Shown here one piece after another: positions 29,508-34,571 of a DNA stretch of 35,273 nucleotides (its first letter is position 1; the number at the start of each line of letters is the position of its first letter). The position numbers and the translations under genes are program-made. Location: positions 1 to 35,273 of the forward strand of contig JACRCW010000129.1 in NCBI GenBank assembly GCA_016218805.1, in the 5' to 3' direction. The notes beneath the pieces are model-generated. The model had not been told where the DNA came from. It made no database searches and was given only the letters and a program-made list of their open reading frames with translations. The DNA is from Deltaproteobacteria bacterium. Lineage in GTDB: Bacteria; Myxococcota; JACRCW01.

Positions 29508-32500
29508 TCAACCCATCGCCACAAACGCCGCCAGGCGCTTGAGCGCGGACCGCGCGATGCCGAACTCGCTGGCGGGTGCGTCAACGGCGCCGTCCTTGAC
29601 GGCCTGCAGGTAATCCCTGGCCAGCGTGCTGAGCGCGAGCTCCGCCGCGCCCCCGAGCGCGGCCCGGCCCGCCACGTACGCGGCAAACCGGCGCAGCGAC
29701 CGGTCATAGGCGCGTGGCGTGGCGGGGCTCACCGTGGTGGCCAAAGAGGTCTGCAGCAGCGCGTCCAGCTGCGCGTTGAAACGCTCCGCCGAGCCGCCCA
29801 GCGCGGCGGGCCAACCCCCGGCGGCCGGCGCGGGCCCGTCCTCGTCGGCGTCGTCGTCATCCAGGGCGCGGTCCCCGGCGCGGATGATGTCCAGCAGCTC
29901 CTTGGGCGACAGGCGCGCCACTGCGTCACTTCCCTCCAGCACGCCGGAAAGCAGGGCACGCTTGTCCTCATGCAGGGACAGGATCTGTTCCTCCACCGTG
30001 CCGCGGGCGACCAGGCGGATGATGGTCACCGGCTTGTCCTGGCCAATGCGGTGGGCACGGTCCGAGGCCTGGTCCTCCACCGCGGGGTTCCACCACGGGT
30101 CCAGGTGCAGCACGTAGCTGGCGGCGGTGAGGTTCAGCCCGGAGCCTCCGGCCTTGAGCGAGATGAGGAACAGCGGGCCGCCTGCGCCGGCCTGGAACGT
30201 CTTCACCAGCTCGTCCCGACGGTGCGCGGGGGTCTGGCCGTCCAGGTAGAGGTACGGGATGCCCTGTGCGTCCAGGCGTTCGCGGACCAACGCCAGGTGG
30301 CTGGTGAACTGGCTGAACACCAGTGCACGCTGCCCGCTCTCCAACAGCTCATCCACAATCTCCATCAGGCGCGTCAGCTTGGCGGAGGGCGCGGTGGATT
30401 CCGCGTCATAGAGGCGCGGGTGGCACGCGCACAGGCGCAGGCGCGTCAGCGCCGCCAGGATCTGGAAGCGTTGGTCCCGGGCCTCGGTCTCGTCGGCCAG
30501 GCCGCCCATCTCCGCCACGGCGGCCAGGCGGGCCTGCTCGTAGAGGCGGCGTTCGGCGGCGGTCAGCTCCACGTATTCCGTGGTCTGGGTCCGCGGTGGG
30601 AGTTCCGGTGCCACCTGCGCCTTGGTGCGCCGCAACAGGAAGGGGCGCAACAGGCGGCCCAGCGCGCGCCGGCGTGACTCGTCACGCTGCTTTTCAATGG
30701 GCCCGGCGAAGCGGTCCCGGAACTCATCCCAGCTGCCAAACAGGCCGGGGAAGGCCACCCGGAACACGCTCCACAGCTCGCCCAGGTGGTTCTCCACCGG
30801 CGTGCCCGTCAACGCCACGCGGAAGCCCGCCTGCAGCCGGTGTGCTGCCCGCGCGCGCTTGGTTGCCGCGTTCTTCAGCGCCTGCGCCTCATCCACCACC
30901 AGCGTGGCAAACTCCCGCGCCGCCAGCCGCTCCACTTCGCGGGCGGCCATGCCGTGGCTCACCACCAGCACGTCCCCGGGGCCCGCGCGCGCCACCGCGG
31001 CCTCGCGGTCGCCATCCGGCGTCTCGCGATACAGCGACACGCGCAGCCCCGGCGTGAAGCGCTCCGCCTCGGACCGCCAATTCCGGCACACGCTGGTAGG
31101 CGCCAGCACCAGGGCAGGGCCCAGCGGTGCGCGGTGCTCCAGCAGGGCCAGCGCCTGCAGCGTCTTGCCCAGGCCCATCTCGTCCGCCAGGCACGCGCCC
31201 GCCTCCCACGCCGCCAGCCGCGCCAGCCAGGCAAACCCATCCACCTGGTAGTCGCGCAGCACCCCGCGCAGGTGGCCTGACGGAGCCACCGCCAGCTCGC
31301 CCGCGCGCTGGGCGCGGTCCACCAGGGCGGCAAAGGCCGGGTCCGCGCGCAGTTCGCCCAGCTCGGCCTTGAGGTCTTGCAGCGCCAGCGCGCCCGCCAC
31401 GCCCACGTGGGCGTCCGGCCCACCGCCGTGCACGTGGTCAGCCGCCGCCGCCATGCGCGCGCGCAGCTCGTCCCCCAGGGCCACATACGTGTGCTCATCC
31501 ACCGCCACAAACCGGCGGCCGCGGCGGACGGCATCCAGCACCGCGGCCACCGCCACGCGCACGCCGTCCACCTCCACCTCACCCTGCACGCCCAGCCAGT
31601 CCCGCTTGCGGGCCACCTGGACGCGCACGTCCTTCAACCGCGCGCGCCGGCTGACGCGCCAGCGCGCCTGGGACCACTCCACCGCCAGGTCAGCCCCCGC
31701 GCGGTCCTGCAGTGCGCTGACCAGGTCCAGCGCCTCTTCGCCCGCCGCCAGGGTGTGCACAAACCGCGGATCCTCGCTCTCCGGCGGCAGCGGCAACGAC
31801 GCCGCCACTTCCCGCACCCGGTGCGCCTCCCCGTCCAGGTCACGGCGCGCGTGGACGCGGCGGTCGCCCTGGGTGCCGTAGACCACCGGTGCGCCCTCGC
31901 CGGGCCGGAACACGCGGCCGTCCGCCAGCGGCCGCACCAGGAAACTCAGGGACAGCACCCCGCCCTCCAGTGCTTCCAGGCGCGCCACCACCGTTGTGTC
32001 CGCGGGCACCTGGTCACCGGTGAGCCCGGGCGGGAGCTCAATGGGCAGCCGGTCTTCCACCAGGGACGCAAACGCCAGCAGCTCCGCGTGCGCGTCCACG
32101 GGAAACTCCGTCTCATGGCGGGCAAGCACCCGCAGCATCTGCTGCGCATCCGGCGCAATGCGCACCATGCGGATGCGCTTCTCGGCGGGTTCCACCACGG
32201 CAAAGACCTCGCCGCTGTCCGCCGTGCGCTCATCCAGCCCCAGCCGTGCCGCATCCAGCGGCTGCCCGTCCAACGCAAGCGACAACCGGATGGCGCCGTC
32301 ACCGCACTCCGTGGCGACGAGGGTGAGGCGACCGTGACGGAGTTCCACCGGGGTCCGCTGCGGCGTTTCCAGCGCGGCCAGCTCCACGCGCGGGTGACCC
32401 ACCAGCAGCTCCAGCGTCTCCAGCCGGGCCGCGTGGCGCTGCTCGGAGGAGAGCTGAGGGTTGTGCTCTGAGGCCGCCAGCTTCTCCAGCACGCGCCGCT

Positions 32501-33809
32501 CCAGCGGGGTCAGTGACGGCAGTTCCAGCAGCGCGCGGTCTCCCGGCACCGCGGCGGCGCCGGCGGACCAGCCCTTCTTGATGCGCTTGTGGACCACCGG
32601 GCGGAGGTCCATCACGCCGTCCTCCGCCGCCTGGACACGCCAGGACAGCAGCGCCTCGCGCGGCGCGCGCGCCGTCTCAAACTCCTCGCGGGCCCGGCGG
32701 AGCTGGCGCAGCGTGCGGCTCCAGGCGGGTGTGCGCAGGAAGTCCGCCAGCGCCGTGACCTTCGGGTCGGCCGGCTGGGAGACAATGAAGTCGTGGAGCG
32801 CGTCCAGCGCCGCCAGCGCGCGCACCCCGTCCGCGTCACCCGTGTGGTGCCGCTCCCGGGTCCAGGCGTTCACCGGTTGCAGCGGCTGCGTCCGCCACCG
32901 TCCCAGCGGCAGGTGAACCGGCGGCAGGCGGGTCCCGTTCAACTGCAGGCTGATGGCCAGCAGGGCGTCGCCCTCGCCGTCAAACGCAGCGCCAATCAGG
33001 GCGGCCCCGGGCCGCGGACGCGCCGTTTCGCGAATGCGCGCGCGCGCCTCCGCCACGCGCTCCAGGAACTCCCTCAGCACCGCGTCCAGCGTCTCCGGGA
33101 CGCCGCGTGCGGCCCGCTGCGCCTCTTCGGCAGCCCCCTGCTCCACCACCCTGGCTTCCGCCTGCAAGGCGCGCCAGGTGGCCGCCGCCAGCGCGCGCGG
33201 CGCCTCCTTCCCGGCCCACAGCGGCAGCATCAGCCGTCCCAGCAGCGCGTCCGCCGCGCGGGAATGGAGGTTCGCTCCGTAGCTGAGGAACTCGTAGAAG
33301 GGGCGCCCCTCGTGGCCAAGAACCGACGTCAGCGCCTGGTCCAGTGTTTCCCGGATGCCGTGCGCCTCCGCCCACCGCTCCAACTCCGCGCGCGTCTGCG
33401 GCGCGTCCTCCGGTATGGGGCCGCGGGGTGCGCTCTGCTTGGCCGCCACAGGTCCCGGCGCCGCGGGGGGCGCATCGGGGGCCGCTGCCCGCTCCACGTG
33501 GCGCTTGACGGCCTGCACCAGACGGTCCCGCAGCGCGGGGCTGCCCAGGTTTCCCAGGGTCCCCTGGACCTTCCCCCGCTGGCACAGCTCCGCCAGCGTC
33601 TGGACGCCCGTCGCGGTCTCCAGCTCGCGCAGCAGGCCAATGACGGCGGGATCGGTCCGGTCATCGTTCCCCAGCACCGCCCAGGGCTGCTCAAGCGCTG
33701 CACTCCATCCGTGCCTGGTGGCCAGATCACTGAGCTGCGGCAGCGTGGTGGCGCCTTCCAGCTGCTGGCGGATGACGCCGCGCGCGAAGTCGATGATCTG
33801 GGCGGTCAT
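29508..33809 (-). CDS. SNF2/SWI2-family (DEAD/DEAH-like) helicase, 1433 aa
   Basis: LRDYQ, LADEMGLGKT, DEAQ, LTGTPVENHLGELW, FSQFT, ISLKAGGSGLNLT, WWNPAVEDQASDRAHRIGQ. Confidence 0.95.
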   Translation of the reverse strand: MTAQIIDFARGVIRQQLEGATTLPQLSDLATRHGWSAALEQPWAVLGNDDRTDPAVIGLLRELETATGVQTLAELCQRGKVQGTLGNLGSPALRDRLVQAVKRHVERAAAPDAPPAAPGPVAAKQSAPRGPIPEDAPQTRAELERWAEAHGIRETLDQALTSVLGHEGRPFYEFLSYGANLHSRAADALLGRLMLPLWAGKEAPRALAAATWRALQAEARVVEQGAAEEAQRAARGVPETLDAVLREFLERVAEARARIRETARPRPGAALIGAAFDGEGDALLAISLQLNGTRLPPVHLPLGRWRTQPLQPVNAWTRERHHTGDADGVRALAALDALHDFIVSQPADPKVTALADFLRTPAWSRTLRQLRRAREEFETARAPREALLSWRVQAAEDGVMDLRPVVHKRIKKGWSAGAAAVPGDRALLELPSLTPLERRVLEKLAASEHNPQLSSEQRHAARLETLELLVGHPRVELAALETPQRTPVELRHGRLTLVATECGDGAIRLSLALDGQPLDAARLGLDERTADSGEVFAVVEPAEKRIRMVRIAPDAQQMLRVLARHETEFPVDAHAELLAFASLVEDRLPIELPPGLTGDQVPADTTVVARLEALEGGVLSLSFLVRPLADGRVFRPGEGAPVVYGTQGDRRVHARRDLDGEAHRVREVAASLPLPPESEDPRFVHTLAAGEEALDLVSALQDRAGADLAVEWSQARWRVSRRARLKDVRVQVARKRDWLGVQGEVEVDGVRVAVAAVLDAVRRGRRFVAVDEHTYVALGDELRARMAAAADHVHGGGPDAHVGVAGALALQDLKAELGELRADPAFAALVDRAQRAGELAVAPSGHLRGVLRDYQVDGFAWLARLAAWEAGACLADEMGLGKTLQALALLEHRAPLGPALVLAPTSVCRNWRSEAERFTPGLRVSLYRETPDGDREAAVARAGPGDVLVVSHGMAAREVERLAAREFATLVVDEAQALKNAATKRARAAHRLQAGFRVALTGTPVENHLGELWSVFRVAFPGLFGSWDEFRDRFAGPIEKQRDESRRRALGRLLRPFLLRRTKAQVAPELPPRTQTTEYVELTAAERRLYEQARLAAVAEMGGLADETEARDQRFQILAALTRLRLCACHPRLYDAESTAPSAKLTRLMEIVDELLESGQRALVFSQFTSHLALVRERLDAQGIPYLYLDGQTPAHRRDELVKTFQAGAGGPLFLISLKAGGSGLNLTAASYVLHLDPWWNPAVEDQASDRAHRIGQDKPVTIIRLVARGTVEEQILSLHEDKRALLSGVLEGSDAVARLSPKELLDIIRAGDRALDDDDADEDGPAPAAGGWPAALGGSAERFNAQLDALLQTSLATTVSPATPRAYDRSLRRFAAYVAGRAALGGAAELALSTLARDYLQAVKDGAVDAPASEFGIARSALKRLAAFVAMG

Positions 33810-33866: not shown

Positions 33867-34571
33867 TCAGGTGATTATCGCCGCGGAGTCAAAGTTGCCC
33901 TCGCCCACGGAGCGCCGCAGCGTCTGCATGATCCGGGGGACGTCGTCGTGCGGGCCGCTGACATAGAACGGCTTCCCGCCGCGGGAGAACGCAAAGACGC
34001 ACGGACCGGCCCACGGCCCCAGCACGCCGGCACAGCGCGCAAATCCGTCCACCGGTTCAAACCCCAGCGAGCGCGCAAAGTCGACCGCGCCAAACACCAG
34101 TTCTCGGACGGTGGCGAGCGAAACCCGCTCCCAGGTCTGGCCGGATCCCTCCTCAATGTGCGTCAGCAATGCCCGGACTTCTCCCGGCGTGAAGCGCTTC
34201 CGGGAAAAGCAGTTCTTGACGCCCAGGCAACCCGGGTCAACCAGGAAGACGTGGACGGCCACCAGGGACGGGGAGTCTCCCGCCACCACGGCAATCTGGA
34301 TGAGCTTGGGGATGCCGCTGGGCGGCTGCGGCTGCCAATCAGGCGGCGCCAACTGCGGCGGCCCCCGCAGCGCCACCTCCTGGCGCCACGTATTGGACAC
34401 GTAGCACTCCAGGTATGCCGGTGGTTTCTCCTCCGGCCCCCGCGCCGCTGCCAACTGCCGGATCACTTCGGTGACCACGGAAGGTGACAGCTTCACCGCC
34501 CGCGCAATCTCCCGCGCATTGAGTCCCTTCTGCCGCAGCTCAGTGATTCTCTGACGGGTCGCTTCATCCAT
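33867..34571 (-). CDS. Hypothetical protein with N-terminal helix-turn-helix
   Basis: RITELRQKGLNAREIARAVKLSPSVV HTH. C-terminal domain with FLVDPGCLGVKN, LVFGAVDFARSLGFEP and GKPFYVSGPHDD motifs; function unknown. Confidence 0.85.
   Translation of the reverse strand: MDEATRQRITELRQKGLNAREIARAVKLSPSVVTEVIRQLAAARGPEEKPPAYLECYVSNTWRQEVALRGPPQLAPPDWQPQPPSGIPKLIQIAVVAGDSPSLVAVHVFLVDPGCLGVKNCFSRKRFTPGEVRALLTHIEEGSGQTWERVSLATVRELVFGAVDFARSLGFEPVDGFARCAGVLGPWAGPCVFAFSRGGKPFYVSGPHDDVPRIMQTLRRSVGEGNFDSAAIIT

Follow-up and report, generated by a model that had tools for sequence, protein, structure and literature searches.

A bacterial SNF2-family ATPase with a C-terminal domain related to the core-binding domain of tyrosine recombinases

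The core-binding (CB) domain of tyrosine recombinases binds the recombination site, according to PMC8138268. In the Xer-type recombinases XerD, XerA and XerH this domain stands N-terminal to the catalytic domain. This study concerns a domain with the same four-helix fold that is found instead at the C-terminus of a SNF2-family ATPase. The gene lies on the minus strand of a 35,273-nucleotide stretch of DNA (contig JACRCW010000129.1 of assembly GCA_016218805.1, from a deltaproteobacterium placed in the Myxococcota), which is called the window throughout. It encodes a protein of 1433 residues whose last 94 residues, the tail, form the domain in question.

The remainder of the protein also has described relatives. 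Its N-terminal region and motor align nearly end to end with models of SWIM-type SNF2 helicases (PDLC02850 and helic_SCO1167), but these models stop short of the tail, at residue 1316, and the relatives carry a CxC...CxH motif that the window protein does not. An analogy in design is offered by the eukaryotic remodellers ISWI and Chd1, in which a SNF2 motor is combined with a small helical C-terminal DNA-binding module, the SANT-SLIDE domains, thought to anchor the enzyme on DNA during translocation. However, the DNA-binding fold of ISWI and Chd1 is unrelated, their substrate is the nucleosome and their tails are not homologous to the one described here. FtsK is likewise a motor on double-stranded DNA (dsDNA) with a small C-terminal DNA-reading domain, and it has a functional link to Xer recombination, as its gamma domain reads KOPS and activates XerD. 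FtsK differs in being a hexameric pump with a RecA fold, and its gamma domain has a winged-helix structure rather than that of a CB domain. Additionally, the tyrosine-recombinase-like phage regulators MrpR and SroF (Protein Data Bank (PDB) entries 8a0a and 9rd5) have co-opted the recombinase scaffold for DNA binding without recombination. Those regulators keep a two-domain body of recombinase size (320 and 317 residues, from the PDB lengths), whereas the window protein keeps the CB domain alone, fused to a motor.

No published description of a fusion between a SNF2 protein and a CB domain was found in the literature searched, which did not cover subscription journals. This agrees with the preliminary description of this DNA, made from the sequence alone, which did not know the architecture as a described one. 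The fusion therefore appears to be a new combination of two well-known modules that is conserved in one clade, and for which a function can be proposed.

The SNF2 protein and the relationship of its tail

The window protein is a SNF2-family ATPase, with both Pfam lobes above their cut-offs (SNF2-rel_dom 193.5 bits, cut-off 24.9; Helicase_C 77.9 bits, cut-off 23.5) and a recognizable motif VI (Table 1). Motif VI is followed by 176 residues, consisting of about 55 that close the helicase in all relatives, a linker of 27 and the domain of 94. The preliminary description had the protein continue past motif VI and a DDDDADED run, which sits within the acidic linker, into a tail of about 90 residues. 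This peptide was confirmed exactly in the open reading frame (ORF) 29508..33809 on the minus strand, whose translation ends in ...DRALDDDDADEDGPAPAAGGWPAALGGSAERFNAQLDALLQTSLATTVSPATPRAYDRSLRRFAAYVAGRAALGGAAELALSTLARDYLQAVKDGAVDAPASEFGIARSALKRLAAFVAMG. The range given there for the tail, 29508..29786, held up in part. The peptide is real, but the minus strand was left unstated, and the plus-strand translation of 29508-29786 is meaningless. Because that range also began two residues inside the first helix of the domain, residues 1340-1433 (29511-29792) describe it better. The GC content at codon position 3 (GC3) is 0.89 in the tail frame compared to 0.57-0.73 in the other two frames, and by this signature of the genome the tail frame is coding. 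The N-terminal region, residues 1-853, matched no Pfam family and no PDB sequence, and SNF2 relatives align to the window protein from residue 14 or from about residue 125.

When the tail of the window protein was scanned against Pfam, the top match was PF02899 (Phage_int_SAM_1) with 17.0 bits and an E-value of 0.0077. The curated cut-off of this family is 22.3 bits, and because the window copy falls below it, the case for a CB domain rests on the tail family and not on a single sequence. Of 21 homologous tails scanned singly, 11 matched PF02899 at E<=1, and two passed the cut-off over nearly the whole profile (31.7 bits for the tail in genome G243 and 23.8 bits for that of protein P0006), while no unrelated Pfam family was matched by more than two of the 21. 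Since two members pass the threshold, the architecture is probably already present, unremarked, in domain-architecture tables. Most members fall below the threshold and for that reason annotation pipelines miss the domain in them.

A profile of the tails was then compared using hhalign with 30 genuine Phage_int_SAM_1 domains. These were taken from 13 genomes of the phylum, and the two Xer-type recombinases of this genome were among their sources. The alignment had a probability of 95.5% (P 1.6e-8, score 50.4) over 80 columns and covered positions 1-82 of 83, and a larger tail alignment of 21 rows gave 95.2%. When the columns were shuffled 100 times the highest score was 21.1 (mean 10.4, standard deviation 2.4), and reversed profiles scored 16.4 and 12.8. 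The resemblance between the tail and the recombinase domain is thus more than chance. The T...Y signature (T17, Y21), which is invariant or nearly so in the genuine domains, is seen in the window tail as SPATPRAY. Homology with Xer-type CB domains extends over the whole domain, with S-P-x-T-x-x-A-Y...L..F in helix 2 and A-R...L..F-L in the last helix common to both, although the tail family has motifs of its own, Y.R...RF and G...AP.SE.

The most telling test with regard to homology was the reciprocal one, in which a profile made from helicase tails only was run over 401 genomes of the phylum. Matches were found in 24 of the 401, and in 10 of these genomes the only match was outside a SNF2 gene. 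Nine of those 10 matches were complete tyrosine recombinases (PF02899 at 59.6-75 bits, PF00589 at 138-178 bits), and each match fell inside the SAM-like domain. The tenth was a Cas_GSU0053 protein (L070 976-1935 on the minus strand, in G324:C84; E 3.1e-4). The window tail also faintly matches Cas_GSU0054 (E 0.14), and both of these Cas matches are probably due to chance.

The structure of the tail was modelled with AlphaFold2. A 10-row alignment gave a model with a predicted local distance difference test score (pLDDT) of 82.6 and a predicted template modelling score of 0.72, with four helices at positions 3-24, 29-50, 59-71 and 81-98 of the 99-residue query. The single-sequence model of the tail, with a pLDDT of 54.5, was too poor for use, and the linker had a pLDDT below 50 in the single-sequence model. 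VIA-align, which is independent of Foldseek, was used to scan 48,161 PDB chains with the tail model, and ranks 1-11 were all CB domains of tyrosine recombinases (Z 7.4-9.4), aligned over the N-terminal domain. The best match was to XerD residues 3-89 (Z 9.4, root-mean-square deviation 1.9 A over 77 residues), and others were 3nrw, the N-domain of a Haloarcula integrase (Z 9.0), XerA (8.2), the integron integrase IntI (8.2), XerH (8.1) and the lambda Int CB domain (7.8). MrpR and SroF were in the same list at Z 5.6 and 6.0. The Foldseek list was headed by XerA, Cre, IntI and XerD, all with E-values above 1.

Several results weigh against the assignment of the tail to CB domains. The window copy alone misses the Pfam cut-off, as noted above, and the tail in the sister genome G001 has no Pfam match at all. 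Neither phmmer nor hmmsearch, with the tail or with the tail profile, found anything significant among PDB sequences, and Foldseek returned zero matches at E<=0.001 for the tail model. Unrelated helical domains appear from VIA-align rank 12 at a Z of about 7, with helical domains of Enzyme I at 7.2-7.3, and a Z of 8-9 is within reach of unrelated helical bundles. The structural evidence is thus supportive but not decisive by itself. The sub-threshold window copy, the middling Z scores that helical bundles can reach and the empty PDB sequence searches would fit a convergent likeness, with the tail a generic four-helix bundle unrelated to recombinases. However, convergence does not fit easily with two family members above the curated cut-off across the full profile length, with an end-to-end hhalign match and clean shuffle controls, with a reciprocal search that led to recombinases for nine of ten non-SNF2 matches, or with a structural ranking whose top 11 all belong to one family. 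Convergence is very improbable on this evidence, and the tail is in all likelihood a divergent homologue of the Xer-type CB domain. The preliminary description had proposed an integrase core-binding (SAM-like) domain, to be checked by Pfam and AlphaFold/Foldseek, and this was borne out by the profile homology, the Pfam matches of the family, the fold ranking and the reciprocal search. PF02899 is the best Pfam match (sub-threshold), the model is folded and recombinases top the Foldseek list.

The catalytic domain of tyrosine recombinases, PF00589 (Phage_integrase), defined by the RKHRH pentad and the tyrosine nucleophile, is absent from the SNF2 protein even at E<=10, and of the nine PF00589 matches in the genome none is on this contig, as expected from the preliminary description, which had the CB domain without its catalytic partner. 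About 280 bases separate the stop codon of the SNF2 gene from a convergent GMC oxidoreductase gene, and no remnant of a catalytic domain was found downstream. Because the catalytic domain did not accompany the CB domain, no cutting or rejoining of DNA by the recombinase route is possible for this protein.

Table 1. Features of the SNF2 gene and of the ORF upstream of it, in positions of the window
Feature	Positions	Strand	Basis
Whole gene, 1433-residue SNF2-family ATPase with C-terminal core-binding-like domain	29508..33809	-	ORF translation, GC3 0.89, Pfam
N-terminal region, residues 1-853	31251..33809	-	homology with the N-terminal part of bacterial SNF2 helicases of the SWIM type
SNF2-related ATPase lobe, residues 854-1133	30411..31250	-	PF00176, E 5.6e-57, profile 1-290/290
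Helicase_C lobe, residues 1148-1256	30042..30368	-	PF00271, E 8.6e-22
Motif VI QASDRAHRIGQ, residues 1247-1257	30039-30071	-	sequence
Acidic Gly/Pro/Ala-rich linker DRALDDDDADEDGPAPAAGGWPAALGG, residues 1313-1339	29793..29873	-	net charge -7
Probable orphan core-binding (SAM-like) domain of tyrosine-recombinase type with four helices, residues 1340-1433	29511..29792	-	PF02899, hhalign, AlphaFold2, VIA-align
Stop codon of the SNF2 gene	29508-29510	-	ORF translation
Upstream same-strand ORF, 234 residues, weak N-terminal helix-turn-helix (HTH)	33870..34571	-	HTH_38 25.5 bits, below cut-off 27

Conservation and history of the tail

SNF2 homologues with the same tail, which the preliminary description had proposed to look for, were found both in genomes of the phylum and among metagenomic proteins. 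An exhaustive phmmer search of 1.84 billion representatives with the tail found nine other proteins, several of them visibly C-terminal fragments of SNF2 helicases. A word-indexed search with residues 1290-1433 had the query itself as its sole match. Word-indexed searches also supplied ten full-length metagenomic proteins with the tail (P0012-15 and P0017-22; 976-1489 residues), and in two of the searches all matches were SNF2 proteins (5/5 and 8/8). One member of the tail family is labelled by its source as a deltaproteobacterial metagenome-assembled genome. Within the phylum, the tail is on a SNF2 frame or a remnant of one in 14 of the 401 genomes (G000, G001, G042, G072, G157, G195, G210, G230, G238, G243, G268, G282, G287 and G301). 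One of these, G195, is unpublished and was used in this count only; without it the count is 13 of 400. In 11 of 12 strong loci motif VI is in frame with the tail and lies 128-216 residues before the C-terminus, the exception being a cut form in G301. In comparison, 18 more distant SNF2 relatives stop about 55 residues past motif VI or end in short acidic stubs.

The orthologue in G001 is 47% identical to the window protein and its tail has the same VDAPASE motif. This orthologue is spread over two contig ends, L002 (G001:C487, 3' end) and L021 1999-2490 on the minus strand (end of G001:C291). The split arose at a QDKVPAP tandem repeat of the linker, inside which the assembly breaks off, and the second contig end carries the remainder of the repeat and the tail. 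Gene callers would give it as a truncated helicase plus a separate fragment of 163 residues.

The consensus of the tail family is T...Y.R..RRF ... YL.AL..G...AP.SE...AR..L..L..FL. In the numbering of alignment A4, Y29, R35 and Y61 are invariant and R31, F36, S75 and R81 are nearly so. Protein P0003 and the G195 locus were left out of all alignments, and A4 also leaves out L059, a near-duplicate of L058, and L053, which is close to P0006. P0003 itself (493 residues), one of the proteins from the phmmer search, contains at least four tandem repeats of about 110 residues, each matching residues 15-80 of the tail query (E 3.3e-6, four stretches), and it may be an array of core-binding-like modules. 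Two Pfam models, PF27043 (listed after Helicase_C) and PF27460 (before SNF2), are precomputed on some tail-bearing relatives (P0012, P0013, P0015, P0017 and P0018), and neither is named in the Atlas or in the literature searched. PF27043 may be a recent model of this tail or of the neighbouring segment, and it may also affect how far the architecture is already present in domain-architecture tables.

A maximum-likelihood tree of the helicase core was made from 31 rows chosen from the loci and proteins in hand, with other paralogues excluded and a midpoint root. All 13 tail-bearing rows fell in one clade of 19 (support 97/93), and six tail-less rows were interspersed among them. Five changes in tail presence or absence are needed on this tree, of which well-supported branches force at least two. 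The simplest reading of this tree, which has only a midpoint root, would be a single acquisition of the tail followed by several losses.

Some copies of the tail are damaged. In G282 a second copy (L077/L078, G282:C95, ~105777-106072) is interrupted by a frameshift, and ahead of it lies a short stretch similar to the SNF2 N-terminal region; this looks like a remnant with the motor deleted. In one genus, the tail of G287 (L072, G287:C198) is reduced to its last helix and that of G301 (L063, G301:C201) is joined directly to the N-terminal region; both of these forms are either degenerate alleles or assembly artefacts.

Degenerate versions such as these (the last helix in G287, the cut form in G301 and the frameshifted second copy in G282) would be in keeping with a tail that is a functionless leftover, produced when a deletion fused an integrase gene to the helicase. 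However, tails from several families of the phylum and from metagenomes have kept 22-40% identity and a set of invariant residues. Furthermore, the reading frame is intact with a GC3 of 0.89, the fold is confidently predicted, and the ~280 bases up to the GMC oxidoreductase gene hold no remnant of the catalytic domain that such a deletion could have left. It is hardly credible, then, that the tail is a leftover; it is kept in homologues, predicted to be folded and similar to CB domains in both profile and structure.

Possible roles of the tail

The model proposed here suggests that an ancestor of the clade gained a copy of the CB domain of a Xer-type tyrosine recombinase, about 90 residues in four helices, at its C-terminus, where this copy would have been joined to the motor through a flexible acidic Pro/Ala/Gly-rich linker without the catalytic domain. 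The gene product would be a stand-alone bacterial SNF2-family ATPase of the SWIM-type clade, dependent on dsDNA. Its tail would serve as a tethered duplex-DNA-binding module that keeps the motor in place on DNA, or directs it there, during translocation by the ATPase lobes. With the tail as a fixed anchor point, the motor could pull DNA, form loops in it or strip bound proteins from it. Since the CB domain is the site-binding part of recombinases, a tethered duplex-DNA-binding tail is the most likely of the readings considered. By this analogy it can be inferred, with moderate confidence, that the tail binds duplex DNA, perhaps with some sequence specificity, and anchors or aims the motor. The net charge of the tail is +3 in the window copy; across the 21 members it averages +2.7 and is positive in 16.

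Some observations run counter to a DNA-binding role. The positive charge is modest, and 5 of the 21 members are neutral or negative. AP.SE, the most conserved motif of the family, lies in the loop that leads into the last helix; the CB domains of recombinases lack a counterpart to it, and it could mark a different ligand that is not DNA. Additionally, six members of the same clade have no tail, and therefore the tail is dispensable for the core function of the motor.

The AP.SE loop, not being explained by DNA binding, could instead belong to a protein-protein docking module that contacts Xer or other tyrosine recombinases, or their synapses, by mimicry of CB domains and recruits the motor to recombination sites in a manner similar to FtsK and XerD. 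In recombinase synapses, neighbouring protomers are in contact through their CB domains. The nearest relatives of the tail by structure and by profile are Xer-type recombinases, and the genome encodes Xer genes and other recombinases. However, neither the window nor the seven other loci examined have a recombinase gene linked to the SNF2 gene, and docking is considered unlikely. When the tail was modelled in complex with the Xer recombinase of this genome, the score was 0.00, which was counted neither for nor against binding.

A more specific proposal is that the orphan CB domain gives the motors of this clade sequence- or structure-specific loading at a dif-like or att-like half-site or at a recombinase-bound synapse. 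This is decidedly unlikely, but if true it would mean that there are site-directed bacterial SNF2 translocases which act at defined loci to remodel or take apart complexes of recombination or of the nucleoid, and the arrangement would be a SNF2 counterpart of FtsK-KOPS-XerD.

The linker raises a different issue. In tail-bearing relatives it is 27-98 residues long, rich in Pro, Ala and Gly, often made of tandem repeats and strongly acidic (net -4 to -16), and it adjoins a mildly basic domain. Linker and tail together could be an autoregulatory element that gates the motor by folding back on the ATPase lobes or the N-terminal region, in which case DNA binding would be secondary or absent. In eukaryotic SNF2 remodellers flanking segments act as brakes, and the tail-less members of the clade retain an acidic stub, which would fit such a role. 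Nevertheless, the variation in linker length and the tandem repeats are easier to reconcile with a loose tether than with docking in a fixed geometry, and autoregulation by the tail appears improbable.

A CB module kept under selection on an ATP-driven translocase, without its catalytic partner, would show that this module can be put to new use as a portable device for DNA binding or targeting. The tail also gives a handle on a large and almost uncharacterised clade of bacterial SWIM-type SNF2 proteins.

Clade identity and neighbouring genes

Residues 123-1316 of the window protein match a PADLOC model, PDLC02850, that bears the label 'DpdE', at 860.8 bits. This model has no curated cut-off, and judging from the sequence matches it probably covers the broad SWIM-type SNF2 clade. 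The nearest clusters in the Atlas carry SNF2-rel_dom, Helicase_C and SWIM, which agrees with membership of that clade, and the nearest named NCBIfam model is helic_SCO1167 (442.8 bits, cut-off 1200). Two named defence proteins were considered and rejected. For DpdE of the Dpd 7-deazaguanine modification and restriction system, the NCBIfam model NF041062 scored 47.9 bits against a cut-off of 500. A scan limited to the 22 other ORFs of the window, and not extended to the remaining genome, gave no match to a Dpd model. For ZorD of Zorya, the NCBIfam equivalog scored 217.8 bits against a cut-off of 1500; the only PADLOC matches among the 22 other ORFs were of MotB/ZorB type, on an OmpA-domain protein 17 kb away. 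The 'DpdE' label would be misleading for members of the clade that lack a Dpd system, and a defence-finder run could mislabel the clade.

The ligands of the SWIM motif CxC...CxH (window positions 32800-32950 on the minus strand, residues ~290-340) are all replaced in the window protein, where the aligned segment has no Cys, and G001 keeps only CDH. The pattern is matched by 7 of 10 aligned proteins, P0012 has a CxxC...CxH variant, and P0014 has a Pfam SWIM match of 18.8 bits, just under the cut-off of 19.6. The window protein is thus a member of the SWIM-type clade in which the zinc ligands have been lost.

The window is housekeeping territory, with genes for carbamoyl-phosphate synthase, methylmalonyl-CoA mutase, PhoD, an OmpA-domain protein, a cyclophilin, PEGA and Kelch proteins, a pyridoxal phosphate enzyme and the GMC oxidoreductase. 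The ORF of 234 residues upstream of the SNF2 gene ends 60 bases from the SNF2 start, and the two may be co-transcribed. It had no PADLOC match and no match to any known family other than the weak HTH, and the gene upstream of the G001 orthologue is a different one. A conserved operon partner was sought in seven other tail-bearing loci and none was found, the neighbours being different at all seven. Those neighbours include AbiEi/AbiEii, Gp49 with an HTH protein, Fic, an ATP-dependent DNA ligase, Lhr-like and HrpA-like helicases, and sugar and cell-wall genes. In two of the seven loci AbiEi or AbiEi/AbiEii lies just beyond the 3' end of the tail-bearing gene (L080 7239-7979 on the plus strand in G042 and L081 6158-7851 on the plus strand in G238), and in G230 the Gp49/HTH pair is upstream of it. 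These AbiEi/AbiEii and Gp49/HTH neighbours may mark variable regions of the genomes.

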